The notes under the pieces are model-generated. The model searched no databases, was not told the DNA's origin, and was given only the letters and a program-made list of their open reading frames with translations. Below are positions 1 through 16,691 of a stretch of 64,000 nt of DNA, piece after piece. The position numbers were made by a program, and so were the translations under genes. The DNA is taken from the NCBI GenBank assembly GCA_018820855.1, contig JAHJNL010000044.1, positions 14,808 through 78,807 of the forward strand, read 5' to 3'. This DNA comes from Pseudomonadota bacterium (GTDB lineage Bacteria; Desulfobacterota; Desulfobulbia; Desulfobulbales; Desulfocapsaceae). Each line of letters begins with the position of its first letter. The first letter of the stretch is position 1.

Positions 1-915
1 GAGGACGGTGGTGGCTCCTTTCAGCAGGGGACCGTAAATGATGTAGGAATGACCTACAACCCAGCCAACATCGGAGGCTGACCAGAAGACGTCCCCGGCA
101 TCAATGTTATAGATGTTTTTCATGGACCAGTGGATGGCCACGGCATGGCCGCCGTTGTCGCGCATGACACCCTTGGGCATGCCGGTGGTACCGGAAGTAT
201 AAAGGATATAGAGAGGGTCGGTTGCCAGGACAGGAACACAGTCAGCAGGTTGGCTTGCCGCTTCCAGTTCCTGCCAGTCAAGGTCTCTTCCTTCCTGTAT
301 CTCGGCATGTATCACCTTCCGCTGGAAAACGATGCATTTTTCCGGTTTATGGTCAGATTGCTCAATGGCCCTGTCTACCAGGGGTTTGTAGGCAATAATT
401 TTTTTCCCCTCTACGGCTCCTGAAGCAGTGATCAGAACCTTTGGGCGGGCATGATCGATGCGGATGGCGAGTTCGCTTGCGGCAAAGCCGCCAAAGACGA
501 CGGAATGGACAGCACCGAGTCGGGCACAGGCCAGCATGGCCACAGCTGCCTCGGGGATCATGGGCATGTAGATAATGACGGTGTCACCCTTGCTTACTCC
601 CTGGCTTTTCAGGCCACCGGCAAAGTGAGCCACCCGCTCCTGCAGTTCTTTATAGCTGATTTTGGCAATGCTATCTGTAACTGGTGAGTCATAGATGATG
701 GCGGTCTGTTCACCACGACCAGATTCCACATGGCGATCCACTGCATTGTAACAGGTGTTGAGTTCACCGCCTGCAAACCAGCGATAGAAAGGAGGATTGG
801 AAGCATCAAGGACCTTGTCACACTTCTTGATCCAGTTGATGCCTTCTGCGGCTTTGGCCCAGAATTCTTCAGGCTGTTCAATGCTCTGTTGGAAAAATGT
901 GTCGAGTTGTCCCAT
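1..915 (-). CDS. prpE: Propionate--CoA ligase / acyl-CoA synthetase (N-terminal part; 3' end lies outside the window)
   Basis: Absent from the ORF track because it runs off the window. My reverse translation from the ATG at complement 913-915 gives MGQLDTFFQQSIEQPEEFWAKAAEGINWIKKCDKVLDASNPPFYRWFAGGELNTCYNAVDRHV. Further on it shows the AMP-binding signature YTSGTTGMPKG and GWVVGHSYIIYGPL. It is collinear with E. coli PrpE as I recall it. Confidence 0.8.
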   Translation of the reverse strand, partial: MGQLDTFFQQSIEQPEEFWAKAAEGINWIKKCDKVLDASNPPFYRWFAGGELNTCYNAVDRHVESGRGEQTAIIYDSPVTDSIAKISYKELQERVAHFAGGLKSQGVSKGDTVIIYMPMIPEAAVAMLACARLGAVHSVVFGGFAASELAIRIDHARPKVLITASGAVEGKKIIAYKPLVDRAIEQSDHKPEKCIVFQRKVIHAEIQEGRDLDWQELEAASQPADCVPVLATDPLYILYTSGTTGMPKGVMRDNGGHAVAIHWSMKNIYNIDAGDVFWSASDVGWVVGHSYIIYGPLLKGATTVL

Positions 916-1156
916 GATCGTCCTCACTGGTCTGATGGTGTCAATACTGTTACGAACAAGCGCATAAGATTGACTGTTTTATACCGGAAAGATGCATGTA
1001 GTTCAAGGTTTGCAGGGGAGGCGAGGTCCTTTTTGTTTTCCTTCTTCAGTTTTTTTTTTCACTGTAGTATGTTTATGTATATCATTAATGGGAAAGGAGA
1101 TCCTGTTCTTAATTATATATTTTCTGTTGGCGTAACCATTTTTATGGAAAGGATGC

Positions 1157-2809
1157 ATGGGGGGAGATCAGAAACAATCCATTTTGCTCATAGATAACGA
1201 CATCATTAATCTGGCCACCGTGGAAACGGTATTGAAAGATCTTGATGTGGATGTTGTTGTCGCTGAGCATGCCGAGATGATATTGGATTTGGTTATGGAA
1301 CAGAATTTCGCCGTGATTCTTCTTGCGGTGAACGTTTCAGATCCGGAACCTTTTGAGCGGGTTCGCATTCTTGGTGAAAGTGAACAGGTCGGTCACACCC
1401 CTGTAATTTTTCAGGCAGAGGCAGAAGAGATAGGTGGTTTGCTGGAGCAGGGTTATGCTGCAGGCGCTGTCGATTTTCTTGAAAAACCGGTGAATCCCAT
1501 TGTTTTGAAGGCCAAGGTCAAAGTCTTTCTTGAGCTGGCCGCCCGCCAGCAACAGCTGGAGCTTGCTACCAGCAAGGTCCATGAACAGAATCTGAAGCTG
1601 GAACAGCGGGCTATACGGGATGGCCTGACCGGACTGTACAATCATAATCATCTGCAGGAACAGCTGGCCCGGGAAGTATCTCGGGCTCGGCGTTATAAAA
1701 CTTCTCTTTCAATATTTCTTCTTGATCTTGATTTTTTCAAGGATGTAAACGATTCCTGTGGGCATCCCTTTGGTGATTTTGTGCTCAAAGAATTTACAGC
1801 GAGGGTGCAGGCGGATCTGCGAAAGTCTGATATATTCGGCCGCTATGGAGGAGAGGAGTTTTTGGTCATTCTTCCCAATATTGACGGGAAGCAGGCGGAA
1901 GTCGTTGCTGAAAAGATCAGGACCAAGATCGCTTCCACTGTCTTTACCAACAATCGTTATACCCGCTATGTGACGGTTTCCATAGGTGTCTATTCAGGCT
2001 TCGGTGATGATACTGCGCCTCCCGGAATAATTGTTGATTATGTAGATAATGCCCTCTATCAGGCCAAGGCCGACGGCCGCAATCGTATTGTCCACTACCG
2101 GGCACCTAAGGGCAGTGTGCACGGACTGGAAAATCACATCAAGGATGCCATTGACTCTTCCCAGCAGAGTCAGCTCAATGCCACCATCGAAAAGGCCCGT
2201 GCCATGACCATCGCCTCATTTGAGGCCATGGTGCATGCTCAGACTCGAGAATATGATATGTTGGTGGATCGTAATGATCTTTTTAATAAGATCCTGGATC
2301 AGCTCACGAAAAAACTGAATCTTCCCGAAAAGCTCATCCATTCATTTCGCCGTGCCATCAAGCTGCACGACCTCTTCCGCTGCTATATTCATGACAGTTC
2401 TCTGGAGACAGAAGGGCCGCTCAATAAGGAACAGGAGGATATGCTTTTTGATCAGCCCCTCATGCTCCGGGAACTGACAACCATGTTTGATTTTTTTGCC
2501 TCTGAACGGGTGATCCTCTATTCTCATCATGAGCATTATGACGGTTCAGGATACCCGGACGGCCTGAGGGGCAATGAAATTCCCATGGCTTCACGTATAT
2601 TTACACTCATTGATTCATATGTCGCCATGATTTCTCCAGTGTGTGAAAAGGGTGGTATGAGTATCAAAGAAGTGCAGGAAGAGCTTTGTACGCACTCTGG
2701 AGGCCAGTTCGATCCTTTCCTCGTAGATATGTTGCTGAAGGTCATCAGGGAAGAGCATTCCTTGTCTGATCTGGAGGAGTTGCCAGATGCTTCGACGGAC
2801 GGATACTAA
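1157..2809 (+). CDS. Receiver-like domain / GGDEF diguanylate cyclase / HD-GYP phosphodiesterase fusion protein
   Basis: 550-aa ORF. The CheY-like N-terminus (LLIDNDI, ILLAVNV, LEKPV) has Ala at the phospho-acceptor position. The GGDEF domain has I-site RKSD followed by GGEEF. The HD-GYP domain has KLHDLF and HHEHYDGSGYPDGL. Confidence 0.85.
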   Translation: MGGDQKQSILLIDNDIINLATVETVLKDLDVDVVVAEHAEMILDLVMEQNFAVILLAVNVSDPEPFERVRILGESEQVGHTPVIFQAEAEEIGGLLEQGYAAGAVDFLEKPVNPIVLKAKVKVFLELAARQQQLELATSKVHEQNLKLEQRAIRDGLTGLYNHNHLQEQLAREVSRARRYKTSLSIFLLDLDFFKDVNDSCGHPFGDFVLKEFTARVQADLRKSDIFGRYGGEEFLVILPNIDGKQAEVVAEKIRTKIASTVFTNNRYTRYVTVSIGVYSGFGDDTAPPGIIVDYVDNALYQAKADGRNRIVHYRAPKGSVHGLENHIKDAIDSSQQSQLNATIEKARAMTIASFEAMVHAQTREYDMLVDRNDLFNKILDQLTKKLNLPEKLIHSFRRAIKLHDLFRCYIHDSSLETEGPLNKEQEDMLFDQPLMLRELTTMFDFFASERVILYSHHEHYDGSGYPDGLRGNEIPMASRIFTLIDSYVAMISPVCEKGGMSIKEVQEELCTHSGGQFDPFLVDMLLKVIREEHSLSDLEELPDASTDGY

Positions 2810-3701
2810 ACAGGCTTTACTCTATAAACGGGTCGCTGCCTGTGTTGAGGATTTCGCTCCCCTGCCGTCAGTGGCTATGCGGGTTATGGAGCTGGTATCT
2901 GATCCGGAGACCACGGCCGCCGATCTTGAGACTGTGCTCAGGGGCGATGTATCTTTGGTTGCCGCAGTCTTGAAGCTTGCCAATTCTGCCTTCTACGGAT
3001 TGCGGAGACAGGTGATTTCTCTCAAGCATGCCCTCGTCCTTCTTGGCAAGAGTGAGGTTCAGAACCTGGTGCTGGCCAGAATTCTGTTCCAGGCATTCAA
3101 GCTTTCCGACAGTCGGCAACGTGTTTTGGTGACCGGCATCTGGCGACATTCGTTGGCGTGCGCTCTGGCTGCAGAATGCATTGCAGAGCAGGTTCACGAA
3201 GGGAGTCAGCTCTTTTTTTTAGGTGGCATGCTCCATGATATCGGAAAGCTGTTGGTCGTCAGTGAATTTTCCCAGGAAATTGAAGAAATAGGGCATTATG
3301 GTCAGCTCATTGGGGCGGAGGATCTGGAGATTGAACTGGGGATTCTCGGCTGCGGGCATAATGAACTGGGAGCTCAGCTTCTCTATCGCTGGATGTTCCC
3401 GGCCAGCCTGGTACAGATGGTTGGTGAACATCATGACTATGAACGGATAGCAGAATGTGAACATGCCAGCCAGCTCCTGATTCTTGCGGATTTGTTGTGC
3501 AGATTGACTGCCATGAAGGATTGGGAGAATGACATGGGAAGAGCGGGGACAGAGAGTGAAAAAGTCCAATCTCTTCTACTCAGCTGCGGAAGGATCTCCC
3601 GCATTATAGCGGATGAGCAGGCGTTGGAGAAAATGGAAGATGCATATCGGCAACGACTTAAAGAGCGGGCCGACCTTCTTGATCTGCTGATGGCAGGATG
3701 A
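2787..3701 (+). CDS. HDOD domain-containing signalling protein
   Basis: 304-aa ORF that overlaps the upstream gene by 23 nt. It has an HDOD-type N-terminus, LPSVAMRVMELVSDPETTAADLETVLRGDVSLVAAVLKLANSAFYGL, and later GGMLHDIGKL. Confidence 0.8.
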   Translation: MLRRTDTKQALLYKRVAACVEDFAPLPSVAMRVMELVSDPETTAADLETVLRGDVSLVAAVLKLANSAFYGLRRQVISLKHALVLLGKSEVQNLVLARILFQAFKLSDSRQRVLVTGIWRHSLACALAAECIAEQVHEGSQLFFLGGMLHDIGKLLVVSEFSQEIEEIGHYGQLIGAEDLEIELGILGCGHNELGAQLLYRWMFPASLVQMVGEHHDYERIAECEHASQLLILADLLCRLTAMKDWENDMGRAGTESEKVQSLLLSCGRISRIIADEQALEKMEDAYRQRLKERADLLDLLMAG

Positions 3702-3884
3702 ACCCCTGCATCAGAAATATCTGCGTCAAAGTGTGGGAGCATGAGTTGGTTGTTTATTTAAAAGTGAAAACCTGGTCTTTCAGGCCAGCTCAGAGTAAAT
3801 TGGCTCAGCCGTTTTTATGATGTACCTCTTCGTTTTCTTTGCTGAACTTTATGCCCGCCAGGGTGCAAAGAAAACGAAGCAAAA

Positions 3885-4010
3885 GAAAGGGCTCCCGTGT
3901 CTCTGGGGCCTTCGGACTTCCTTGCGCTCCTCGAAGTTGCCGGGAGTTTGAAAACTCGCTTCGCTCAAACAGTTCAAACTCCTAAATCGGCACCTTCTGT
4001 GGTGCTCAGC
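3885..4010. repeat. REP/MITE-like structured intergenic element with nested hairpins
   Basis: A 10-bp perfect stem GGAGTTTGAA (3943-3952) pairs with TTCAAACTCC (3973-3982) around a CGCTTCGCTCAAAC loop. A second imperfect palindrome, CTTCGG...TCGAAG, lies just upstream. The ORFs overlapping it on both strands (3849-4103, 3897-4217) look non-coding. Confidence 0.4.
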
Positions 4011-4200
4011 CAGTGCCAATGGGATGAAGTAAAACAACCCATTGCAGGGGTTGTCAAGGCCGGGTGCTCTGAGCCCGGATTTATAATTATCTTGATAAAA
4101 CATACCCAGGCGGCGCTTTCGTCTTTTCAGGATATCCCTGCTGTTTTTCCAAAGGTAGAGGAGTCCATCAAGCTATTTTTGTGGCCAGCAGGCTCGTTGC

Positions 4201-6738
4201 CTATTCCCTGTTTCTGAAGGTAGCCAGAGAGCCGGGGTGATGCATTTCATCCTCCATCTCTATGGTATGGCAGACAGCACAGCCCTTGTCTGCGGCAATG
4301 GGATACCGGGAGTTTTGATACTGAAGGGGCTGGAGAGCCCCGATTGCTGCACCATAGCGATTTTTTGCCGGATACAGAGAATGTGGCTGGCCGTGGCAGG
4401 AAGAACAGAGAACCACAGCGGCCTCACCCATGCGGTTATGGAATAATCCCTCACTGTTTTCCGTCCAGGAATTGAAAGCATCATCTGTTTCCGGGGGTTG
4501 AAAGTCCACATGACAGGTGAGACAGTCGGGTTCCATGGTCCACGGAGCGCGTGGGTTGATAGCAGCAATGGCAACTTCGGTCTTGTCGGCAATGAAAGAG
4601 AGGAGTTTTTCTGCCTGGCCATTTTTCTCTTCTTTCTTCAGGAGGCCTGCGGCATGATCGGCCAGTGAACCGTGGCAGTTGCTGCAAGAGAGGTCCAGTT
4701 GTTTGTGGATGCCGTCGAAGGAGTGACTGGCCCCGGTTTCACTTGATGAATGGCAGAGGATGCAGCTGTTGCCTTCAGCGTTGAACAGCAGTCCGGCATG
4801 AAAGCCGTGCATGGCAGCGGAAAGGCTGAGGAGGCCGGGCCTGCTTTCTGTGCCGCGGCTGAAGTCGCCGTGGCAGGACGAGCAGACCACTGTCTTGCCC
4901 CTGGAAAAATCGGCACTGAGATCGGTGTTGCTGCGCTTATCGTGGATTGCCAGGATTCCTGCAGCTGTAGCTCGGGAAAGACCGGATTTGCCATCCTGTC
5001 GCCAGCTGCCTCCGTGACAGTTGCGGCAGCCGAGTTCTGTGGAAATTCCCAGTTTGACTTTGGTTGAGGCGACGATTTTCCCTTCTATTTCAGCCTGCAG
5101 TTCAGCGATGAGAAAAGGACGATAGGGTATGGAGACGGCAGGGATTTCAGATAATGTGGTCTCAAAATAGCCGTCTTGTGGGGCGAGACTTCCCTGCAAT
5201 TGACCTTTTCCTGTCTCCAGGCGGTAGCTGATAGTGACCCCATCCGAGATAAGGCTGGGGCTGGCATCGCGGAAAATGAGCTGGGCACGAAGGGTTGGTG
5301 GGCCGTAAGAGATATCAATTCCGGATTCTTCCGGCTCTGAAGAGAGGATGGTGCCAAGTGTCGGTCCAGCGAGAAGAACGTACTCGGAGGTCTCCGGGTC
5401 AAAGGGGAGTGGGGCAACGGTAACCGGGGTGATCTCTGCAGGCACAGTGGCAAAGCGCGGTACCATCCGCGTGGTGAGATACTCTGTCAGGATGGCTGCT
5501 TCTTCTTTATTTCCGGGAAAAGGGGGCATGTAGGGGTTGGCGGTGCCCATGCTGTTGATAAAGGCCAGCATGCCTTCCGGGGTGTATTTTCTGGCCTGAA
5601 GGGTCAGGTCGTTGAGCGGTCCCCCTTCGGAGTGGCATGGCAGACAGAGCAGGGTGGAGAGTTCTTTTCCGGCAGCCATGCGGTTTTCTGGTGTTATTAT
5701 CCGTTCTTTAATCCAGCGGGCTGTCGGCAGGACACCGCGTTCCTGTACCTGGGCAAGATCCTTTTTCAGGATGGAATTGGAGTACATGAAGTCATAAATA
5801 ATAAAAGGCCTGCGCCCACCTTCGCGGATGAATTCAAAGCTGCCCATATAGAGAAAGCCGAGAATAAGCAGGATCCAGGCCAAAGGTCGGACTACGGCCT
5901 GAGGACGTAAGGCGGCAATAAGCAGGCCTCCGGCAAAGAGAATTGGTGAGAGAAAAATGAAGCCGGAGAGGAAGGGCTTGAGTGCAGGCGAGGTGAAAAA
6001 GATCATCTGCTGCTGGGCAGGAGGCAGTGCACTTTTATACCACAGGGCAGAGCCAAGGAGCAGGAGCAAGGGGGCCATGAGCCAGAGTCCGCAGTAACGG
6101 ACCATCTTGTGTCTCAGGGCACTGTCTTTGAGGTTGGCGCTGGTGAGAAAACCGAAGAGGCCTGCTATCATGAGCGCCAGAAATGTTCTGAAAAAGAGGG
6201 CGGGCCAGAAGGTGGGATTGAAAAAGCCAGCCCAGAAACTGTTGTTGTGCAGCCAGTTGCCCGGCGTGAGCATGAAGTCGATGACTCCATTGATGACAAA
6301 GAGGGAGAGCCAGGCACAAGCAAAATAGATCCAGCCGAGGATCAGATGGTTGCGGGAGCTGATCTTGTTGAAGGAGTAGTAGTAGAGAAGGAGTGCGACA
6401 ATCTCGCCGACAAAAAAGACCCATTCAGTAGCCCAGGCAAAGACAAAGATATGGATGAGTGCTGAGGTGGCGGCAGGACTGAGCAGGGCAATGGTGAACC
6501 ATATTCCCACCCCGGTGAGCCCCCCAAAGACCATGGTCAGGAGGAGGAAAAACCTGGCATGTCTCCTGGTATATTCGAGAATGGCCGGGGATTTTTCACG
6601 CAACCCCTTGAGCTCTGTGAGGACCAGAAAGAGGCCGCCTCCCACCGCAAAATGGGCAACATAGACGTGGACCACGGCAATGAGGGCAATGAGGGTACCC
6701 CCGCCAAAGGCATCGAGGAGCCATGTTGGATAATTCAT
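4201..6738 (-). CDS. Polytopic membrane protein fused to a periplasmic octahaem c-type cytochrome domain (possibly cytochrome bd superfamily-like membrane part)
   Basis: 845-aa ORF. The first ~330 aa are very hydrophobic, about 8-9 TM by eye. Eight CXXCH motifs follow: CLPCH, CRNCH, CSSCH, CILCH, CSNCH, CLTCH, CSSCH, CAVCH. The first lies in a class-I-like segment with a downstream PYMPPF. The start overlaps the upstream stop (ATGA at 6735-6738). Confidence 0.8.
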   Translation of the reverse strand: MNYPTWLLDAFGGGTLIALIAVVHVYVAHFAVGGGLFLVLTELKGLREKSPAILEYTRRHARFFLLLTMVFGGLTGVGIWFTIALLSPAATSALIHIFVFAWATEWVFFVGEIVALLLYYYSFNKISSRNHLILGWIYFACAWLSLFVINGVIDFMLTPGNWLHNNSFWAGFFNPTFWPALFFRTFLALMIAGLFGFLTSANLKDSALRHKMVRYCGLWLMAPLLLLLGSALWYKSALPPAQQQMIFFTSPALKPFLSGFIFLSPILFAGGLLIAALRPQAVVRPLAWILLILGFLYMGSFEFIREGGRRPFIIYDFMYSNSILKKDLAQVQERGVLPTARWIKERIITPENRMAAGKELSTLLCLPCHSEGGPLNDLTLQARKYTPEGMLAFINSMGTANPYMPPFPGNKEEAAILTEYLTTRMVPRFATVPAEITPVTVAPLPFDPETSEYVLLAGPTLGTILSSEPEESGIDISYGPPTLRAQLIFRDASPSLISDGVTISYRLETGKGQLQGSLAPQDGYFETTLSEIPAVSIPYRPFLIAELQAEIEGKIVASTKVKLGISTELGCRNCHGGSWRQDGKSGLSRATAAGILAIHDKRSNTDLSADFSRGKTVVCSSCHGDFSRGTESRPGLLSLSAAMHGFHAGLLFNAEGNSCILCHSSSETGASHSFDGIHKQLDLSCSNCHGSLADHAAGLLKKEEKNGQAEKLLSFIADKTEVAIAAINPRAPWTMEPDCLTCHVDFQPPETDDAFNSWTENSEGLFHNRMGEAAVVLCSSCHGQPHSLYPAKNRYGAAIGALQPLQYQNSRYPIAADKGCAVCHTIEMEDEMHHPGSLATFRNRE

Positions 6739-7799
6739 GAGCGTACCTCCTTATCGGTAAGAACCAGGCGAATCATGTACCAGATAAGGCCGATCCCGGC
6801 GGCAAAGATCAGGAGAAAGGCGAGAAGGGGCGAGTACTGGGGGACAACTTGCAGATCAGAGGTCTTGAACCAGGGGGCAAGGGTCAGTCGTCTGGCAAAT
6901 TCACGAACCAGAACCATGCAGAAGAGGGCGGCCAGGAGAGAATAGGCGGCAGGGCGTACCCGATGCAGGAGTCCGTAAATGAGAGAGAAGATCGCGCAGA
7001 CAATCCCGAGGAGAAGAAAGACCAGAAAAAAAATGCTGCCGTCACCGGTGAGGGTTCGCACCGATGCGGGAAGGCTTCCCCAGTACCAGGTGCCGGCACC
7101 GAAATTGAGGATGGTGGCCCCGGCAAACCAGTTCATGCCGGTAGAAATCCCAATATCGCAATCGGTGTCGCCTCGTCGCTTTTTGAAATCATAATAGAGA
7201 CCGATGGTCAGACCGCCTACGGCCAGCGAAGCGAAGACAGAGTGGAGAAAACGAGGAAACAGAGTCGGATCTGTGAGATTGAGCAGGGTTCCCCGAGGGT
7301 TGGCAAAATAGGCAGACCAGCTTTCCGGATTGACCATGAGAGCCAGGTTGCAGGTAAAGAGAAAGGCGACGACCAGGAGGGATACGGCTATGGCACCGCT
7401 GAGCACTATGTGAAAGTCAGAGGCTCTGTCGTAGGTCAGGCTGTAGATATAGGTTCCGTAATAGGTGAGAATAAGGATTCCGACAATCAGGAGCCAATAT
7501 GTGGCCATGAGCACTGAGCTCGCGTACATGAAATGGCCGTAGAGCACCTGGAGAAAGAGGAGAGGAGCAACGCCAAAGTTGATGGTAAAGGCCACTGTGA
7601 AGGGGAGTTTACCGGAAATCATCTTGTTGGTCTCTGTGCTCTTTCCGGCTGCGTGTCGGAAAAAGGTGATGAGCGAACAGCCAAGGAGGACGTTCATCAG
7701 CACCAGATGGAGAAAAAATGTGACGGTGAGAAGGATCTGAAACCAGCCCCAAGGGACCTGGAGAACATCAGGGGTCGGGATAAGCTGGGTTGCTGTCAT
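6735..7799 (-). CDS. Polytopic membrane protein (~9 TM), partner subunit of the membrane/octahaem protein
   Basis: 354-aa ORF, hydrophobic throughout, with a His in the first TM helix (TVTFFLHLVLMNVLLG). It is translationally coupled to the downstream gene through a 4-nt overlap. I recognised no soluble domain. Confidence 0.7.
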   Translation of the reverse strand: MTATQLIPTPDVLQVPWGWFQILLTVTFFLHLVLMNVLLGCSLITFFRHAAGKSTETNKMISGKLPFTVAFTINFGVAPLLFLQVLYGHFMYASSVLMATYWLLIVGILILTYYGTYIYSLTYDRASDFHIVLSGAIAVSLLVVAFLFTCNLALMVNPESWSAYFANPRGTLLNLTDPTLFPRFLHSVFASLAVGGLTIGLYYDFKKRRGDTDCDIGISTGMNWFAGATILNFGAGTWYWGSLPASVRTLTGDGSIFFLVFLLLGIVCAIFSLIYGLLHRVRPAAYSLLAALFCMVLVREFARRLTLAPWFKTSDLQVVPQYSPLLAFLLIFAAGIGLIWYMIRLVLTDKEVRS

Positions 7800-8222
7800 T
7801 GGAGCACCTCTTGTTTACACATATTTCCGGTTGTCAAAAATGATGGCGGCACAAAAAATAAGATTCTTTGCTGGTCAGAAAGAAACCTCCATATGTGAGC
7901 TCTGCATCATTGAAGGGCTGAGATGTACAATAATGATACGCTGCAGTGATTGAGAATATGCCATCATGGGGCGGTTGAATAACTATGCATAGTGCCAGCA
8001 AAGGTATCGGTCTGGCAGTGTAACGAATGAATGAGGTAATGCGGTGTTGCTTAGTGGTAACGGTACGTGAGACAGAAAAACCTGTTCTCTCAGGAGTTGG
8101 CGTCTACCGGTACTCCATTGCTGCTGGCCGTAAAGGGGTGTCGAGAAGCAATCTTTAGGTTAAATTATATAATGTTACCTTGCTAAATGCAAAAAAAAAC
8201 CACTGAAACATAAAAAAAGTGT

Positions 8223-8264
8223 TTGACTGGAGCCTGGTATGTGATATATGAGATATTAAATATC
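8223..8264 (+). promoter_or_regulatory. Candidate sigma70 promoter plus palindromic operator upstream of the Rrf2 gene
   Basis: TTGACT (8223-8228), a 16-nt spacer, then an extended -10, TGaTATATG (8242-8250). A perfect palindrome GATATTAAATATC (8252-8264) follows directly, about 30 nt before the Rrf2 start. Confidence 0.35.
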
Positions 8265-8295
8265 CTATTTGTCTGGTAAGGAGGGCGGTTGCAGT

Positions 8296-8739
8296 ATGAG
8301 GTTGACACGTGCTGGAGAATATGCTGTCAGGTGTATGATTTGCCTGGCGCACAAAGGGGTCGGGGTTCTGGCTTCCAAGCAGGAAATTGCTGAACGGGCG
8401 GATATTCCCACCCATTTTCTGGCGAAGATCGCTCAGGACCTGGCTCGTGCGCACCTGATAGAGATCCGGCAGGGTTCCAGGGGCGGCTATGTTCTGCTCA
8501 AGGACCCTGCAGAGGTGACGCTGCTTGAGGTGGTGGAGGTGATGATCGGGGAGATTACTCTCAACGATTGTGTGGGCAGGCCGGAAAACTGCATGGCAAG
8601 TAAGCGCTGTGCCGTGCACAGGGTCTGGGAAGAAGCGCGTAATCAGCTGCGGCAGACTCTGGGCGATGTTACCTTTGCCCAACTGATAGAAGAGGAATCT
8701 TGTATTCCGGTGTTTCCTGTGCATAATATAAAGAGATAA
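8296..8739 (+). CDS. Rrf2 family transcriptional regulator (probable Fe-S cluster-binding type)
   Basis: MRLTRAGEYAVRCMICLA is a typical Rrf2 wHTH N-terminus. The three-Cys cluster C-x6-C-x5-C (NDCVGRPENCMASKRCAVH) is present. RBS AAGGAGGG precedes the ATG at 8296. I judge the track start at 8269 to be an upstream extension. Confidence 0.85.
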   Translation: MRLTRAGEYAVRCMICLAHKGVGVLASKQEIAERADIPTHFLAKIAQDLARAHLIEIRQGSRGGYVLLKDPAEVTLLEVVEVMIGEITLNDCVGRPENCMASKRCAVHRVWEEARNQLRQTLGDVTFAQLIEEESCIPVFPVHNIKR

Positions 8740-8796
8740 AACAGATCTTAATTGTCACAGGGTTAGAGGTTTTTAGAGAAAGAAGGAGGGGAAAAT

Positions 8797-9024
8797 ATGT
8801 TGGAGGCGTCTGGCAGAGTATATGCTTTTTATCGTGACGGTTTTAAACGGATGACCCTGGGAAAGACCTTGTGGAAAATAATCCTTATTAAGCTGGTGGT
8901 GATGTTTGCGGTGCTCAAACTTTTCTTTTTTCCAAATTATCTCAACACCAATTTCCTGACAGATGAACAACGGGCTGACCATGTCTTGGAGCAGATAACC
9001 AGACAGGCAGACCAGAACAACTAA
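8797..9024 (+). CDS. DUF4492-type small membrane protein associated with cydAB operons
   Basis: 75 aa. YAFYRDGFKRMTLGKTLWKIILIKLVVMFAVLKLFFFPNYL matches my memory of the DUF4492 family found directly upstream of cydA. RBS GAAGGAGGGG. Confidence 0.7.
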   Translation: MLEASGRVYAFYRDGFKRMTLGKTLWKIILIKLVVMFAVLKLFFFPNYLNTNFLTDEQRADHVLEQITRQADQNN

Positions 9025-9134
9025 TGCCCATCCGAGCGCGCTGATTTGCAAGGTTTGCGCAGAAATAACTCATTGCTCGATCTTGAAAAGAATCTCGTTT
9101 TCGGACAGACACTAATTAATTTAAGGAGGAAAAA

Positions 9135-10667
9135 ATGATTGATGTGGACTTCAGTCTGGTGAACTGGTCCAGAGCGCAATTCGCGCTTACGGCCATGTAT
9201 CACTGGATTTTCGTGCCGTTGACCCTGGGGCTGTCGTTTCTCTGTGCCTTCTTTGAGACCATTTATCTCAAAACAGGAAATGAGCAGTGGAAGAGTATTA
9301 CCCGGTTCTGGATGACTCTTTTTGGTATCAACTTCGCCATAGGTGTGGCTACCGGTATTATCCTGGAATTTGAATTCGGGACCAACTGGTCCAATTATTC
9401 CTGGATGGTGGGCGACATTTTTGGAGCGCCTCTGGCCATCGAAGGCATCTTTGCCTTTTTTATTGAGGCCACTTTTTTTGCCGTAATGTTTTTCGGATGG
9501 GACAGGGTTTCCAAGGGCTTTCATTGTTTTTCAACCTGGATGGTGGCCATCGGTTCCAACCTTTCAGCGGTCTGGATCCTTGTGGCAAACGGTTGGATGC
9601 AGAATCCAGTGGGCATGGTCTTCAATCCTGAGACCGTACGTTTTGAGATGGAGAATTTTGCCGCCGTGGTCTTCAATCCCGTGGCAGTATCCAAATTTAC
9701 CCACACCTCCTCGTCCGGTTTTCTTTTTGCCTCCCTCTTTGTGCTAACTATTTCCTCCTGGTATCTGATGAAAGGCAAGCATCTTGAGATGGCCAAAAAA
9801 TCAATTATTGTGGCCTCGGTCTTTGGTCTGATTTCTTCTGTCTTCGTCGCTTTTACCGGGGATGAGGCCGCCTTTGAGGTCGCGCAGAAGCAGCCGATGA
9901 AACTTGCCGCCATGGAAGGCCTTTATATTGGTGAAAAAGGAGCTGCTCTTGTGGCCATGGGTATTGTCAATTCGGCAAAAAAACCGGGTGATGATCAGGA
10001 GGCCTTTCTTTTTGAGGTCAAGATCCCAGAGCTTCTCTCTCTGCTGGCCAATCGAAAACCGGGTTCTTTTGTGCCCGGTGTTGATGACCTGGTTTATGGC
10101 AATGAGGGCGAGGGTGTTATGGGAGTCAATGCCAAGATGGAAAAGGGGCAGCTGGCTCTGGCCGATCTGGCTGCTTATAAAAAGGCGAAGAAGGAGGGAA
10201 GTGATGTGGGAGCTGCAGAGGCCCTGAGTCGGTTTGATGTCAATAAAGACTTTCTCGGTTACGGGTACCTCTCCACTCCGGAAGAGGCTGTGCCGTCTGT
10301 GCCAATAGTGTTCAATGCCTTCCATGTCATGGTTGTCCTCGGCTCTCTTTTTCCTGTGATCTTTGCCGCTTTTCTTTTTTATGCTCTGAAGGGGACGCTG
10401 ACCGAGAAACGCTGGCTGCTGCCCATAGGCCTCATTTCAGGTCTGCTTGGGTTTCTGGCCCAGCAGTCAGGATGGGTAGTGGCTGAAGTCGGTCGCCAGC
10501 CTTGGGCGATTCAGGGATTAATGCCGGTGAAAGTGGCAACGACAAATCTTTCCACTACTTCTGTACAGGTCACCTTTTTCATGTTTGCAGCGGTCTTTAC
10601 CCTGCTCCTTATTGCTGAAATATCTATCATGCTGAAACAGATATCCAATGGACCGGAGGGCCACTGA
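9135..10667 (+). CDS. cydA: Cytochrome bd-type quinol oxidase subunit I
   Basis: 510 aa. It has SRAQFALTAMYHWIFVPLTLGLSF, GAPLAIEGIFAFFIEATF and GRQPWAIQG, closely resembling E. coli CydA. RBS AAGGAGG. Confidence 0.95.
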   Translation: MIDVDFSLVNWSRAQFALTAMYHWIFVPLTLGLSFLCAFFETIYLKTGNEQWKSITRFWMTLFGINFAIGVATGIILEFEFGTNWSNYSWMVGDIFGAPLAIEGIFAFFIEATFFAVMFFGWDRVSKGFHCFSTWMVAIGSNLSAVWILVANGWMQNPVGMVFNPETVRFEMENFAAVVFNPVAVSKFTHTSSSGFLFASLFVLTISSWYLMKGKHLEMAKKSIIVASVFGLISSVFVAFTGDEAAFEVAQKQPMKLAAMEGLYIGEKGAALVAMGIVNSAKKPGDDQEAFLFEVKIPELLSLLANRKPGSFVPGVDDLVYGNEGEGVMGVNAKMEKGQLALADLAAYKKAKKEGSDVGAAEALSRFDVNKDFLGYGYLSTPEEAVPSVPIVFNAFHVMVVLGSLFPVIFAAFLFYALKGTLTEKRWLLPIGLISGLLGFLAQQSGWVVAEVGRQPWAIQGLMPVKVATTNLSTTSVQVTFFMFAAVFTLLLIAEISIMLKQISNGPEGH

Positions 10668-10669
10668 AA

Positions 10670-11818
10670 ATGATAGCAAATCTTGATTATATAACCCTGC
10701 AGCAACTCTGGTGGGTACTCTGCTCAGTAGTTGGTGCCCTGTTTCTCTTTCTCACTTTTGTCCAGGGCGGGAATACTCTTCTCTGGCAGGTGGCGAAAAC
10801 CGAAACGGAAAACGCCCTGGTCATTAACTCTCTGGGGCGGAAATGGGAGTTGACCTTCACGACCCTGGTTCTTTTTGGCGGAGCCCTTTTTGCCTCCTTC
10901 CCCAAATTCTATTCCACCAGTTTCGGTGGCGCCTACTGGGTGTGGATGCTGATCCTTTTCACTTTCATACTCCAGGCCGTAAGCTACGAATACCGGAAGA
11001 AGCCGGGCAATGTCTGGGGGGCAAAGCTCTATGAACTGTTCCTCTTTGTCAACGGATCGGTGGGGGTTCTCCTTATCGGCGCGGCTGTGGGTACCTTTTA
11101 TACAGGGTCCAATTTTTCACTCAACGATTATAACCAGGTGACCTGGCAGTATACCCTGGGCGGAGTAAACCTTCGTGGACTTGAGGCTGCTTTTTCTCTG
11201 TTTAATCTGTCCATGGGGCTCTTCCTGGTCTTTAATGCCAGGGTCCTTGGTGCTCTTTACCTCCTCAATAATATTGAGCTTGGTTCTGTGGCGGCCATGG
11301 AGACACGACTGCGAAAGGCGGTATGGATCAATTTCCTCTGTTCCCTGCCGTTCCTCCTCTATGTGGTGGGAGCTATTCTGCTGATGAAGGGGTTCCATGT
11401 GGATGAGAGTGGCGTCGTTTCCATGGTCTCGTTCAAATATTTTTTCAATCTGCTGGCCCTGCCTCATCTGCTCATTATGCTCTTGGGTGGCTTGGGACTG
11501 GTGATTCTCGGGGTATTGGGAGGCGCCTTTAAAGGCAGTACCAAAGGAATATGGCCTGCCGGACTTGGCACTGTACTCGTGGGCTTGTGTGTGCTCTGCC
11601 TCCCGGCTTTTAATTCAACATCATTTTATCCCTCAAAATTTGATCTGCAGTCCAGTCTGACTATCTATAATGCCTCATCAAGTCAGTTTACCCTGGCTAC
11701 CATGACCTATGTGGCCCTGGCCATTCCGTTTGTTCTTGCCTATGTTGCGTATGTCTGGAAACAGATGGATTCACAGAAGCTGACAAGCCATGAGGCGATG
11801 GACAGCGAAGCCTATTAA
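10670..11818 (+). CDS. cydB: Cytochrome bd-type quinol oxidase subunit II
   Basis: 382-aa polytopic protein that starts 3 nt after the cydA stop. Length and position are canonical for CydB. Confidence 0.9.
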   Translation: MIANLDYITLQQLWWVLCSVVGALFLFLTFVQGGNTLLWQVAKTETENALVINSLGRKWELTFTTLVLFGGALFASFPKFYSTSFGGAYWVWMLILFTFILQAVSYEYRKKPGNVWGAKLYELFLFVNGSVGVLLIGAAVGTFYTGSNFSLNDYNQVTWQYTLGGVNLRGLEAAFSLFNLSMGLFLVFNARVLGALYLLNNIELGSVAAMETRLRKAVWINFLCSLPFLLYVVGAILLMKGFHVDESGVVSMVSFKYFFNLLALPHLLIMLLGGLGLVILGVLGGAFKGSTKGIWPAGLGTVLVGLCVLCLPAFNSTSFYPSKFDLQSSLTIYNASSSQFTLATMTYVALAIPFVLAYVAYVWKQMDSQKLTSHEAMDSEAY

Positions 11819-11897
11819 GAGATGAATGTTAGCGGTTCATTGGCGTGTCCGATAACATTTTCCCGGAAAAAGGGAATACCAAAAAAAGGAGAATCCC

Positions 11898-11993
11898 ATG
11901 ATGACTACTGTATTACTGCTTGGATATCTTGCTGTTATCGTAGTGTCTTATAAAGGTGCAGTTATTGCCCTGGATAAATCAGGTTTATTGTAA
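11898..11993 (+). CDS. Unannotated 31-aa single-helix membrane peptide, candidate CydX/CydS-like accessory subunit
   Basis: Too short for the track. It translates to MMTTVLLLGYLAVIVVSYKGAVIALDKSGLL. GGAG lies 6 nt upstream of the ATG. It sits 80 nt downstream of cydB and before a strong hairpin. Confidence 0.45.
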   Translation: MMTTVLLLGYLAVIVVSYKGAVIALDKSGLL

Positions 11994-12037
11994 CAGCCTT
12001 TAGCGTATGCTTCTCTTTTTCATGGAGAAGAGAATAT

Positions 12038-12083
12038 CCTCAACGAAATATGGGAGGCTACGGCCTCCCATATTTCGTTGAGG
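12038..12083. terminator. Perfect 21-bp stem / 4-nt loop hairpin ending the cyd operon
   Basis: CCTCAACGAAATATGGGAGGC-TACG-GCCTCCCATATTTCGTTGAGG. The 3' flank is only weakly T-rich (CCCTTTG). Confidence 0.55.
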
Positions 12084-12180
12084 CCCTTTGCGGCAATCGA
12101 GATTACCCGGTTTTAGGATATGCATTCATGATAGTTGAACTGTCTGTTCCCTCTTTACTCCTCATAATGTGAGAAAGACC

Positions 12181-14442
12181 ATGTCTGAACATGAACAAAA
12201 AATGACACTCTTGGGATCCAAGGTCAAAATACGAAACCTGCCCATTAAGCAGGTCAGTCTGCTGGAAGAAGGGAATTTGCCAGCCTACGGATACAATCCC
12301 GGTGATCATATTGAACTTATGGCCGGGGATGTTTCAGTAGAATATGGCAGGCTGGAGCAGTTGTTGACCTGGTTGGCTGCCTATGTAGCAGAGTCGGATT
12401 TGACCCCCAGAATTCATTCCGTGACTTATGGGGAACAGAAAGATATTTTTCAGATATTTAAAAAATACCGGAATACCCAGGTGGAGCGGGAAGACCACGG
12501 CTGGTTCATGGTCAATCAGTATCTACCGGCCGGTGGTCGCTCCAGTTCGGCGGAGGCCTTTGTGGTGGATGACTCCAACAGGGAGATTTTCACCGATAAT
12601 GATGGACTGATCGTAGTGGATGATTCAGGGCACCCTCCTGAACTCAGCCAGGAGGATCTCGACCGTAATCCCGGACTCTGGGCCATTGCCATGGGAATCA
12701 GTGTTGCCCACTGGCAAAACTGGGCCGAACGACTGGGGGATCGCTTTGCTCTTTTTTGCAGACTTTCGGATCTTGAGACCACCCGCATGGAGATGGACTG
12801 CTCTGTGAACTGGGAGACCATTGTTGCCATGTGCCTGCGGGCGCTCAGAACAGATGAGGTAGGACTCTGGGACTCCAGAAAAGGACGTTTTCGCTGTCAT
12901 GTCGTGGTGGAGATGTTTCCTCATGGTATTCTTTACATCGGGCCGGAGGCGACGTTCTTCCGCCATCGTAAGGGATGTCTGCCGGAGAAGAGTTCCCCCC
13001 GACAACGTGGTTCTGTTCCCTGTTATGATACCCTGGCCCCGGCCATGTTAGCTTTGGATACCCTGCGTTTCGGTGAATTTCACTTTGGGAGGAGTTATTT
13101 TTACGATCTCTCCATGAGGGTCCTGAATAATTGGGACAGTCTGTATCGCCACGGCTATTATTTCAAGGATACTCTGGAGTTTCCTAATCTGGATTTCGCC
13201 GAGAGCTTTCCAGGGGGCTACGCCTGTTCTTACGTAGACAATGGACCTGACCCCAGCTTTTTTGAACTGCCCCCTCTGTCAGCCGATTTTGAGGTCATTC
13301 TGGACCTGGTTTCCAGCCAGATCTGGTCCAACGAAAAGAAGCACGCCCTGCGCCGATTCTTTTATTTCCGCAAACCATCGCCTGCCATGAATGGTCAGGC
13401 TCTGGGCCATTCGCACGGGTATATGGACGAGATTGTCTCTGTGCTTCATAATTTGAAAGAAGAGGTGAATCGTAAGAGCGGGTTCAATGATCTTCCTATT
13501 TTTCAGGTGGGGCATCTGCGCACTACGGATCCGGCTGAAATAGATCCGGTGATCACCCTCCAGAACGTCATGGATTCCTATGTCTCCAAGGAAAGTGTCT
13601 TGCGGCCCCTCTGTCTCGGAGTTTTTGGTCCTCCCGGATCGGGAAAGTCCTTTGCCGTGAAAGAGGTTGCCAATGTTATCTCTAAAAAGTACGAGGGAAA
13701 TCCCTTTGATTTTTTTGAGTTTAACCTGAGTCAGTTTGCTTCACCCGATGAGATCAACTCCGCCATCGAGCCGGTACGTGCCTCAGTGGCCATGGGCAAG
13801 GTCCCCATTGTTTTCTGGGATGAGTTTGACTGTCGCTATGACGGTAATGAATTTGGTTACTTGCGCTATTTTCTTCCCTCCATGCAGGATGGAGTAACCT
13901 ATGTCAACGGGATCCCGCATTTTATCGGGCGGGCAATTTTCGTCTTTGCCGGTGGGGTCAAGGCAAGCTGGTCCGGTATGGAGAAACTGCTTGATCCGGC
14001 CGATAAAGAATCCCTGGCCTTGATGAAGACCCTGAAGATTCCGGATTTCATGAGTCGTCTCAGGGTGGTTCTTGATATTGACGGCATTGATCTCCCTGAT
14101 ATCCTGCTCCGTGATTCTGCCAGCAGTGATGATCTGGATGAGCTCAGACGGATTTTACTTAAACGGGCATTTATCATTGCTCACCAAATGGATACCCACT
14201 GGAAGAAAGCGGCAAGAAAGACCTCTGGTCTATTATTGCGTCTCCTCTTGGGACGCTATAAGTTCGGCGCGCGTTCCATCGAGGCGGTAATTGAGGCCAG
14301 TCGCGCTTCAGATCGATTGGTTTACGGACTTCCTGAGCTTATTGCCCCGTCTGCCGCTAGAATCCATGCCGAATGGCGAATTGAGCTGGAGAGAAGGATT
14401 GATCAGCTGCGAAAATCGCAGGGCATGCGTGCTGTATGGTAA
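12181..14442 (+). CDS. Orphan AAA+ ATPase with a large uncharacterised N-terminal region
   Basis: About 750 aa. The C-terminal third is a classical AAA module: Walker A GVFGPPGSGKSF, Walker B PIVFWDEFD, FLPSMQDG, FVFAGG, PDFMSRLR and GARSIEAVI. I recognise no domain in the first ~470 aa. The start is either the GTG at 12169 or the ATG at 12181. Confidence 0.8.
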   Translation: MSEHEQKMTLLGSKVKIRNLPIKQVSLLEEGNLPAYGYNPGDHIELMAGDVSVEYGRLEQLLTWLAAYVAESDLTPRIHSVTYGEQKDIFQIFKKYRNTQVEREDHGWFMVNQYLPAGGRSSSAEAFVVDDSNREIFTDNDGLIVVDDSGHPPELSQEDLDRNPGLWAIAMGISVAHWQNWAERLGDRFALFCRLSDLETTRMEMDCSVNWETIVAMCLRALRTDEVGLWDSRKGRFRCHVVVEMFPHGILYIGPEATFFRHRKGCLPEKSSPRQRGSVPCYDTLAPAMLALDTLRFGEFHFGRSYFYDLSMRVLNNWDSLYRHGYYFKDTLEFPNLDFAESFPGGYACSYVDNGPDPSFFELPPLSADFEVILDLVSSQIWSNEKKHALRRFFYFRKPSPAMNGQALGHSHGYMDEIVSVLHNLKEEVNRKSGFNDLPIFQVGHLRTTDPAEIDPVITLQNVMDSYVSKESVLRPLCLGVFGPPGSGKSFAVKEVANVISKKYEGNPFDFFEFNLSQFASPDEINSAIEPVRASVAMGKVPIVFWDEFDCRYDGNEFGYLRYFLPSMQDGVTYVNGIPHFIGRAIFVFAGGVKASWSGMEKLLDPADKESLALMKTLKIPDFMSRLRVVLDIDGIDLPDILLRDSASSDDLDELRRILLKRAFIIAHQMDTHWKKAARKTSGLLLRLLLGRYKFGARSIEAVIEASRASDRLVYGLPELIAPSAARIHAEWRIELERRIDQLRKSQGMRAVW

Positions 14443-14669
14443 GAAGAGGCATGTAGGCTTCGGTAATGGCAAAAAATGGGCCAGTTCACGTTTGTGTAGG
14501 AGTTGCACGGGGGTGAGGTAAAAGGATAAAGGCAGCAGGTGAAGATCTGGATTTTCTGGTGGACTTAATGTTGCTTTTTTCTTACAGTCTAGTTACCTAG
14601 ATAATGACAGGGGTACTTTGTCGGTATGCCTGGCAAAAGAATATGAAATCTTTATCAAGGAGTTTCAGG

Positions 14670-15008
14670 ATGAAAAAAGTTTCTATCGCTCTTTGTCTTA
14701 CCTTTGCTTTTGCGTCTGCATCTGCCCCTGTCTGGGCTCTGGCGGGCCATGGCCCGGAGACGATTGATCTCAAGGCGGCATATAAGGTGGTGGGAGAAAA
14801 GAATGCAGTGATCTTTCCTCATCACAAACATCAGGAGAAGGTGGAATGTGCCAAGTGTCATAAGGATGTCAAGGGTGGGGGACCTCTCGTAGTTGACATC
14901 GTTGAGCTGACCGGCACCTCCAATGATTTTCACAAAAAATTCTGCTGGTCCTGTCATGTGGAGATGAAGGTGCCAAAGGGAAAATCCTGTAAAACATGTC
15001 ATCGCTGA
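14670..15008 (+). CDS. Periplasmic triheme cytochrome c7 family protein (PpcA-like)
   Basis: Signal peptide MKKVSIALCLTFAFASASAPVWA. Three CXXCH motifs (CAKCH, CWSCH, CKTCH) and FPHHKH, as in c7 cytochromes. RBS AAGGAG precedes the ATG at 14670. The track start at 14604 looks like an extension. Confidence 0.8.
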   Translation: MKKVSIALCLTFAFASASAPVWALAGHGPETIDLKAAYKVVGEKNAVIFPHHKHQEKVECAKCHKDVKGGGPLVVDIVELTGTSNDFHKKFCWSCHVEMKVPKGKSCKTCHR

Positions 15009-16196: not shown

Positions 16197-16691
16197 GATT
16201 CACCTGCTGAATAGTATACGTTGCCTGATATCATATGGTTAAGTGGTATCGAGAGCATATGGTATCTTTTATCAAAGACAGTTTGAAAATACGCTATTTT
16301 TTCCTTTTTGCCTATTCTTTTTATCCTAACGGGTAAACCCTTTCTTTCTGGTTCTCAGCCGGCTGTTGTGATAGGCATGAAGGCCACACCATATCCGGTT
16401 TATATTCAGGAAGATGGGGAGTCGTTTCATGGCTTGTCAATGAGGGGGCAACATCTTTTTGATTGCTGTCTCTTCTTATTCTCTCTTTTGTCATTTTCTT
16501 TGTAACCAACTACTTGGTTGTTCGTTAATAAGATGAGGAAATATTTTCTTCAACCATCCGCATATTCATTTTCGTGAATTTTTTTTCATTTGCCCCATGA
16601 GGAAAGGAGGTGTCTATAAAACCAACACCCTGAACTGTTGCGTAAGATTGGAATTCACCAGTTATATCAGACTCATTCAAAGGAGAAATCA

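Follow-up and report, generated by a model that had tools for sequence, protein, structure and literature searches.

Cytochrome bd constitutes one of the three superfamilies of oxygen reductases and, to our knowledge, every characterised member takes its electrons from quinol. A two-gene operon in a 64,000-nucleotide stretch of a Desulfocapsaceae genome (order Desulfobulbales; assembly GCA_018820855.1, contig JAHJNL010000044.1, positions 14,808 to 78,807; hereafter “the window”) raises the question of whether this fold can be driven by c-type cytochromes. The operon lies on the minus strand and comprises two open reading frames (ORFs). Subunit B (6735..7799; 354 amino acids (aa)) is a CydA paralogue of the OR-C1b type with nine transmembrane (TM) helices and no haem c motif, and subunit A (4201..6738; 845 aa) is a CydA homologue of the OR-C1a type that is fused to eight c-type haem sites. 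In this report, we describe the homology, fold, residue conservation, missing quinol site, gene pairing and multihaem modularity of the pair, and from these we infer which cofactors it binds, which path the electrons take, what its substrate is and how its turnover is coupled to energy. By its signature residues and orthologues, the pair almost certainly belongs to class OR-C1 of the cytochrome bd superfamily, as delineated by Murali, Gennis & Hemp in 2021 (bioRxiv 10.1101/2021.01.16.426971). As to function, we somewhat favour a reading in which B and A would form a pseudo-symmetric, two-subunit complex that delivers electrons to O2 from c-type cytochromes of the periplasm, and not from quinol.

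A translationally coupled gene pair

An earlier note, made from the letters of the window alone, had described two coupled ORFs sharing an ATGA, and both were found where it had placed them: the stop codon of B and the start codon of A overlap at 6735..6738 (minus strand), an arrangement indicative of translational coupling. The start codon of A is preceded, at a distance of 7 nt, by a Shine-Dalgarno sequence (AAGGAGG). Relatives were gathered by a scan of one genome per species, which yielded at least 534 confirmed stretches; the locus comparisons in this report concern the best 80, all of them Desulfobulbales or Desulfobacterales-type records. In 77 of these 80 loci, B is the gene immediately before A, and the remaining three are contig ends. 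The two genes overlap by 4 nt in 62 of these 77 loci, and a further six show a 1-nt overlap. A profile of B retrieves 1851 representative clusters at E ≤ 1e-3, or 552 when the threshold is set to E ≤ 1e-30.

Subunit A has a CydA-like membrane core

Residue numbers without a subunit prefix refer to A, while CydA H19, E99, E107, H126, S140, H186, M393 and E445 are given in CydA reference numbering. The first 310 residues of A (5809..6738, minus strand) make up a CydA-like membrane domain. Residues 17–198 score 40.8 bits against PF01654 (Cyt_bd_oxida_I; cut-off 26.2, E = 1.4e-10). The Geobacillus CydA chain 5doq_A is matched by A alone at E = 0.0015 and by a 94-sequence profile of A at E = 4e-8. 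The AlphaFold2 model of A (predicted local distance difference test (pLDDT) score 86.2, predicted template-modelling score (pTM) 0.80) contains eight TM helices; the count of roughly nine helices per subunit in the earlier note thus holds for B and not for A. When this model was compared with the Protein Data Bank (PDB) using Foldseek, CydA chains occupied ranks 1–9 and 11 (probability 1.00, target-normalised TM-score 0.50–0.65). Rank 10 was an unrelated chain (7pks_g; target-normalised TM-score 0.09), and the first CydB chain came at rank 13, with more CydB chains amid weak unrelated matches. The suggestion that the locus encodes a relative of the bd superfamily is therefore upheld, given that A exceeds the PF01654 cut-off and that neither predicted fold has a high-probability match other than to cytochrome bd subunits.

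The residues of a bd-type active site are present in A. The histidine that had been noticed in the first helix of each subunit corresponds to A H24 and B H31, both invariant in the homologue alignments. The acidic pair that had been likened to a CydA segment is E105/E112, which is invariant as well; in alignments with Geobacillus CydA, H24 pairs with H21, E105 with E101 and E112 with E108. In reference numbering, H24 is equivalent to H19, E105/E112 to E99/E107, and H131/S145 to H126/S140, and six residues separate E105 from E112, as required for OR-C1a. Nine residues (H24, E105, E112, H131, S145, E302, R305, E306 and R309) are invariant in 118 close homologues of A. The same nine are found in all of 120 mono-haem relatives that are 36–45% identical to A, and P311 is likewise conserved in 120 of 120.

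The quinol-oxidising parts of CydA are absent. The position of CydA H186 is occupied by F183/R184, and the histidine ligand of haem b558 is gone. Further, the loop between TM6 and TM7 spans only 13 residues in the model, and A therefore has no Q-loop. At the periplasmic end of TM8, A carries an invariant FEFIR-E306-GGRRPF motif (ExxRxP[FYW]) that resembles CydA AE(445)xGRQPW, and the two motifs are paired both by hhalign against the CydA of the window (E = 0.017) and in a second HMMER domain against 5doq_A. By this motif, the E445 ligand is kept as the putative ligand E306, though Table S6 of Murali et al. lists E445 as absent. The hhalign comparisons of A or B with the single CydA and CydB sequences of the window were by themselves too weak to use, and a low-threshold comparison with a small CydA alignment ran on into the Q-loop and can be relied on only to about residue 200. 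Judged by its residues, A has kept the ligands and the proton channel of a bd active site in full, but not the parts that oxidise quinol.

Subunit A carries a modular periplasmic multihaem tail

With eight TM helices in A, its C-terminal domains come to lie in the periplasm. All three are encoded on the minus strand. The eight CXXCH motifs that had been counted in this tail are exactly eight (residues 365, 571, 619, 659, 685, 739, 778 and 820), and eight are present in all 118 full-length homologues of A. The first belongs to a class-I mono-haem cytochrome c domain (residues 325–425; 5464..5766) with the binding site C365-x-x-C368-H369 and axial M404. This domain matches Pfam Cytochrome_CBB3 at E = 3.8e-4 (21.2 bits, under the 27-bit cut-off), and its profile matches cytochromes c551 and c6 at E ~1e-3. 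In the latter alignments M404 (YMPPF) coincides with the axial methionine, in agreement with the earlier proposal of a class-I unit with a Met ligand. C365, C368, H369 and M404 are invariant in 120 of 120 mono-haem relatives.

A linker and an all-beta, sandwich-like domain come next (residues 430–566; 5041..5451), the strands falling at residues 453–566 of the AlphaFold2 model. Foldseek relates this domain weakly to carbohydrate-binding-module and GM2-activator-like beta-sandwiches, and a sequence search of the PDB with the beta-sandwich and seven-haem module gave no match. The remaining seven CXXCH motifs are located in the last domain (residues 567–845; 4204..5040), which scores 43 bits against the Pfam MtrC/MtrF domain II/IV family (cut-off 30 bits) and also matches c3_2 and c7. 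Eight additional histidines are conserved there (H599, H644, H647, H678, H695, H786, H833 and H834). These would be enough for bis-His ligation of seven haems, which is probably how this domain holds them.

The modular nature of the tail is evident at locus L084. In this relative, B is followed by a 435-aa A-like protein, which has eight TM helices and a class-I haem c, and then by a separate 499-aa protein that is 33% identical to residues 431–845 of A (E = 1e-62). The beta-sandwich and seven-haem unit is thus an add-on that has been fused in A. The public gene call for the B-like gene of this locus (156–4311) is about 130 codons too long and masks the start of the A-like gene at 1391. Gene order varies too: two loci with one or two haems (L083 and L086) have A before B, as opposed to B before A in the window. 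At L082, a 560-aa B-family protein (1526–3208) carries a fused Tll0287-like domain that bears a single CXXCH, and its gene lies downstream of an A-like gene with overlapping start and stop codons.

Subunit B is a divergent CydA paralogue

B has no match in Pfam, NCBIfam or the PDB, the last having been searched with both the single sequence and a profile; its homology is visible only by profile–profile comparison and by fold. The AlphaFold2 model of B (pLDDT 86.8, pTM 0.85) has nine TM helices, and Foldseek pairs it with CydA and CydB chains only (query-normalised TM-score 0.55–0.72, probability 1.00), with nothing else significant. When close homologues are used, hhalign aligns B collinearly with the membrane domain of A (probability 80%, E = 1.4e-5). 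A diverse B profile aligns with the A family, again collinearly, over B 26–324 and A 19–336 (probability 91.9%, E = 7e-7). PF01654 is matched by one of 123 B-family members (E = 7.6e-10), and the CydB family, PF02322, by none, that is, neither by B nor by its 122 relatives. By comparison, the CydB encoded in the window itself scores E = 1.6e-63 to PF02322. The fold, the profile–profile homology to A and the one family member that matches PF01654 identify B as a divergent CydA paralogue, and not as a CydB orthologue. Of the CydA/CydB-like pseudo-heterodimer envisaged in the earlier note, the bd fold of both subunits stands, but the assignment of the second subunit to CydB does not.

When the proteins are aligned on a shared NP motif, CydA H186 falls opposite A F183 and B H186. 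In 127 representatives at 29–45% identity, B H31 (the equivalent of CydA H19), H186, M295, R183, R299 and R303 are conserved, and the proton-channel glutamates are absent from B. B may hold extra b-type haem.

Membership in class OR-C1

Murali et al. divide the bd superfamily into qOR, OR-C and OR-N. In their description, OR-C proteins lack a quinol site, have about eight TM helices and bear a C-terminal periplasmic haem c extension; OR-C1a is accompanied by an adjacent paralogue, OR-C1b, and has up to eight haem c sites in Desulfovibrionia. This is the uncharacterised, haem-c-fused clade that the earlier note had mentioned without being able to place the protein in it. The OR-C1a row of their Table S6 gives H24, E105, E112, S145, H131, Y119, Y121, V77, W80 and F183. 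A has every one of these residues at the identical number, and they are conserved in the A alignments. Table S7 of the same paper lists eight-haem OR-C1a proteins in Desulfobulbus mediterraneus and japonicus, and mono-haem ones in Chitinophaga, Myroides, Lysinibacillus and Hydrogenobacter. The two Desulfobulbus records correspond to our loci L054 and L058, which are 49–50% identical to A. The assignment of A to OR-C1a follows from the identity of its signature residues and from its orthology to these listed members.

B, for its part, is a CydA-superfamily paralogue adjoining an OR-C1a, as OR-C1b is described to be, and the OR-C1b list of Table S7 includes haem-free “hypothetical protein” entries with which B is consistent. 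The paper gives eight TM helices for OR-C1b, and the model of B has nine; the count of eight is a descriptive, not a defining, feature of the group. The family is thus already known, and the pair is a previously undescribed member of a family whose function is still uncharacterised. Later papers use the OR-C class only as a phylogenetic label, and our literature searches, which included the locus tags of orthologues, returned no functional study, with the sole exception of a proteomic mention of SMUL_0150.

Other identities were considered and rejected. Neither A nor B has a match at E ≤ 1 in Pfam or NCBIfam to the NrfD/PsrC or ActC/ActF families, which the earlier note had named for comparison, nor did the fold comparisons match either protein to them. 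A canonical qOR composed of CydA and CydB is incompatible with the lack of a Q-loop and of H186/M393 in A and of PF02322 in B. Finally, a pseudogene was rejected given the conservation of residues across the homologues.

Proposed mechanism and rival explanations

The earlier note had left the function between a quinol-linked oxidoreductase and an oxygen reductase fed by c-type haems. The latter fits better, because A has neither a Q-loop nor the b558 ligands. In the mechanism that we propose, low-potential periplasmic donors would load the seven-haem domain, from which electrons would pass to the His/Met-ligated class-I haem c after TM8, a stand-in for the missing b558 and Q-loop. They would then proceed to a two-haem active site in A with H24 and E306 as ligands. 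Substrate protons would come from the cytoplasm by way of the E105/E112/H131/S145 channel, and such cytoplasmic uptake would render turnover electrogenic, as it is in cytochrome bd. Chitinophaga, Myroides, Lysinibacillus and Hydrogenobacter are aerobic genera, and the occurrence of mono-haem OR-C1a in them supports a role in O2 reduction. We also count in its favour that the window holds a canonical cydAB operon, a di-haem cytochrome c peroxidase (16638–17756, plus strand; CCP_MauG, E = 1.6e-34) and a small c-type cytochrome with three CXXCH motifs (14604–15008, plus strand).

Several points weigh against this mechanism. We found no purification or assay of any OR-C member in our literature searches. 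It is typically in quinol:cytochrome c electron hubs that a membrane haem protein bears a fused seven-haem chain. The pairing of E306 with E445 concerns a short motif, and the alignments that support it are weak by themselves (E = 0.017; 0.5 bits). Beyond close relatives, the neighbouring genes give no consistent functional signal. Moreover, SMUL_0150, a mono-haem relative from Sulfurospirillum multivorans, is up 39.5-fold in cells adapted to pyruvate fermentation (PMC6242987), which is a misfit with a purely O2-driven role.

The fermentative induction of this OR-C1a relative would be more at home in a menaquinol:multihaem-cytochrome c oxidoreductase, possibly reversible, that connects the quinone pool to periplasmic or extracellular cytochromes in the manner of CbcL, ImcH, CymA, NrfH or Qrc. 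The His and Met residues of B would then bind a b-type haem by a new quinone site, and the bd “active site” would be reused for electron transfer. The preservation of B H31, H186, M295 and the conserved arginines in 127 diverse representatives agrees with such a role, as does the resemblance of the seven-haem domain to wires of the MtrC/MtrF, DmsE and NrfB types; the Desulfobulbales are, in addition, rich in cytochrome-based electron transfer. We nevertheless regard this explanation as unlikely. Neither subunit has a Q-loop or a recognisable quinol site, nor a match to the NrfD, NapC or cytochrome b families in Pfam and NCBIfam. The strict conservation of the proton-channel glutamates and of the E445 equivalent would be unexpected for electron transfer alone, and the minimal, widespread form of the family has a single haem c and occurs in aerobic genera. 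A cytochrome c-dependent reductase or detoxifier of NO, H2O2 or nitrite, operating through the bd-type haem pocket, strikes us as quite improbable. Canonical bd oxidases do react with NO and peroxide, and there are hints of this kind in the gene context: an NnrU-family gene 3' of A on the same strand in 20 of the 80 loci, an Rrf2 gene with weak NsrR/IscR similarity in the divergent control region, the nearby cytochrome c peroxidase, and a thiol peroxidase gene before the pair in D. sulfexigens. SMUL_0150 is also co-induced with a NosL protein under fermentation (PMC6242987). Yet every one of the context links is limited to particular lineages, and what NnrU does is not clear either. The promoter that the probable Rrf2 operator overlaps is that of Rrf2/cydAB, and not clearly that of B–A, and we identified no residue signature specific for NO or peroxide.

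A decayed or non-catalytic bd relic, serving for instance as a structural anchor for the periplasmic cytochrome, might be imagined from the lack of haem b558 and a quinol site in A and of any Pfam or NCBIfam family for B. We disfavour it strongly and hold it to be very improbable: strict conservation extends to all eight haem sites as well as to the residues of the active site and of the proton channel, relatives are found in at least 534 stretches with 1851 B clusters at E ≤ 1e-3, and translational coupling is conserved as well. A more elaborate variant, which we put forward as a long shot, considers the two subunits jointly. A would keep the O2-reducing pair of haems and the proton channel, and B would keep a b558-like His/Met haem site at H186/M295 and an H19-like site at H31. 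The complex could then house as many as about twelve haems and serve as a hub with two inputs, being fed both by the periplasmic multihaem network and from the side of the membrane or quinone; or else, in anoxia, it could relay electrons from one to the other. If this is so, sulfur-disproportionating Desulfobulbales would gain an electrogenic oxidase that needs no quinone, or an oxidase with a second role as an electron conduit.

If the cytochrome c-driven reduction of O2 proposed above is true, no bd-type enzyme before OR-C would have been known to run on cytochrome c. It could explain how nominally anaerobic Desulfobacterota burn periplasmic reductant (H2, formate, sulfide) on O2 without quinones and still generate membrane potential. 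The novelty has a limit, in that the family is already in the literature and is not a newly found kind. The window presents it as a tidy operon of just two genes; relatives in culture include Desulfocapsa sulfexigens, where the genes are UWK_01526/01527, and Desulfogranum, and the residue-level hypotheses concern A E306, A H29, B H31, B H186 and B M295.

The divergent operon and its control region

Divergent from the pair is an operon on the plus strand (8269..11818), which is context and not part of the complex. It encodes an Rrf2 regulator (8269–8739), a 75-aa DUF4492 protein (8797–9024; E = 7.6e-31), which probably serves the canonical bd enzyme as a small accessory protein in the membrane, and canonical cydA (9135–10667) and cydB (10670–11818). 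A 757-aa AAA ATPase-domain protein with weak MoxR-like similarity (12169–14442, plus strand) lies directly downstream of cydB, a position that it keeps in 12 related loci at 77–95% identity. The earlier note was right that a canonical cydAB operon, which we place at 9135–11818, is divergent from the pair, and it took this to strengthen the thematic link; the weight it gave to this proximity does not hold. The divergent Rrf2-cydAB-AAA arrangement is limited to about 13 close relatives among the best 80 loci, and adjacency to cydAB is for this reason weak functional evidence; its use as strong evidence was rejected.

The control region was compared among the window and loci L001, L009–L019 and L031. 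Directly upstream of the Rrf2 gene lies a palindrome, ATGAGATATTAAATATCCTAT (8248..8268, unstranded), with the consensus ATAAGAy-N7-rTCTTAT, which adjoins the Rrf2 start codon. It is the sole match in the window, where 0.01 would be expected by chance, and it is kept in relatives. This palindrome is a probable Rrf2 operator. It overlaps the predicted Rrf2/cydAB promoter, and co-regulation of B–A through it is possible. For B–A, a sigma-70-like promoter is predicted at 8164..8193 on the minus strand (TTGCAT, 17 nt, TATAAT). Some 365 nt separate it from the B start, and it was the best site in the scan, with 10 of 12 positions matching. The divergent intergenic region contains back-to-back, sigma-70-like promoter elements; these, the two B–A hexamers among them, and the palindrome are all kept in 11 Desulfocapsaceae loci. 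The distance from the B–A promoter to the B start is some 300 bases greater in the window, L001 and L031, which implies a long leader. At L016, an element of about 100 bp with an internal inverted repeat occurs twice in tandem upstream of B (~6690–6900), between the promoter region and the start codon, and resembles a small repeat insertion.

Elsewhere, the neighbours of the pair differ. The genes upstream in Desulfobulbus-type loci are housekeeping-like (purF, ispDF, a peptidase), as judged by reading of the sequence and not by family search. Only in D. sulfexigens is the thiol peroxidase gene a neighbour. The one neighbour to recur is the downstream NnrU-family gene of Desulfobulbus-type genomes; it encodes a membrane protein of about 204 aa (PF07298, E = 6e-8) and is found in 20 loci within L026–L077 (at 10559–11173 in L077, for example).

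The wider window

The small cytochrome and the peroxidase, which are encoded within 10 kb of the bd-type genes, may together with these constitute a loose oxygen/peroxide defence neighbourhood. Convergent to the 3' end of A are genes for a response regulator (GGDEF and HD-GYP-like) and an HDOD-domain protein (1157–3701, plus strand), a pair that is kept beside A only in the closest relative, L001. Farther away, a 336-aa ORF with no Pfam match (20085–21095, plus strand) ends in a run of about 100 residues of GGS/GSG repeats. A dnaA gene (42800–44125, plus strand) is present, and the origin of chromosomal replication may therefore be close to the window. Across positions 1–14000, all 1-kb blocks have a positive GC skew, and an Rfam scan of the window found no RNA family.

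Comparison with known systems

The nearest known relatives of the pair are the OR-C1 proteins, with which it shares a CydA-like subunit of eight TM helices, the lack of a quinol site, a periplasmic C-terminal haem c and an adjacent CydA paralogue. To their description we add that E306 is kept as the counterpart of E445, that B has nine rather than eight TM helices and keeps equivalents of H19 and H186, that the gene order here is B before A, and that a split form exists at L084. Nothing excludes OR-C1 membership of the pair.

The canonical CydAB oxidases (E. coli bd-I and bd-II, Geobacillus, Mycobacterium; 6rko, 7oy2, 5doq, 7nkz) resemble it in the fold of both subunits, in a four-helix core with the equivalents of H19, E99 and E107, in the E445 motif and in a pseudo-symmetric two-subunit layout. 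In contrast to CydA with its nine TM helices, A has eight and is devoid of the Q-loop and of H186/M393, the electron entry being replaced by eight c-type haems. The place of CydB is taken by B, a paralogue of CydA in which His and Met residues are conserved, and no small subunit of the CydX/CydS type was identified for B–A. The archaeal CydAA' (qOR4a/qOR4b) is likewise built from two CydA paralogues, the second of which has no proton-channel glutamates and keeps the H19 equivalent. CydAA', however, keeps the quinol site, has been shown to oxidise quinol and has no haem c.

Like B–A, the “bd-like” OR-N proteins of Nitrospirota, Chloroflexota and Manganitrophus have no quinol site and consist of a and b CydA paralogues, often with haem ligands in both. 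Non-quinol electron donors have been proposed for them too, and they are biochemically uncharacterised. They differ in having 10–14 TM helices, no fused haem c and another operon context. Lastly, Geobacter CbcL and ImcH, the caa3 oxidases and the CcoP subunit of cbb3 exemplify a membrane redox core that is wired to periplasmic c-type haems within one polypeptide or operon. Their membrane folds (dihaem cytochrome b, NapC/NirT and haem-copper) are unrelated to that of A, and it is by analogy only that they share its design.

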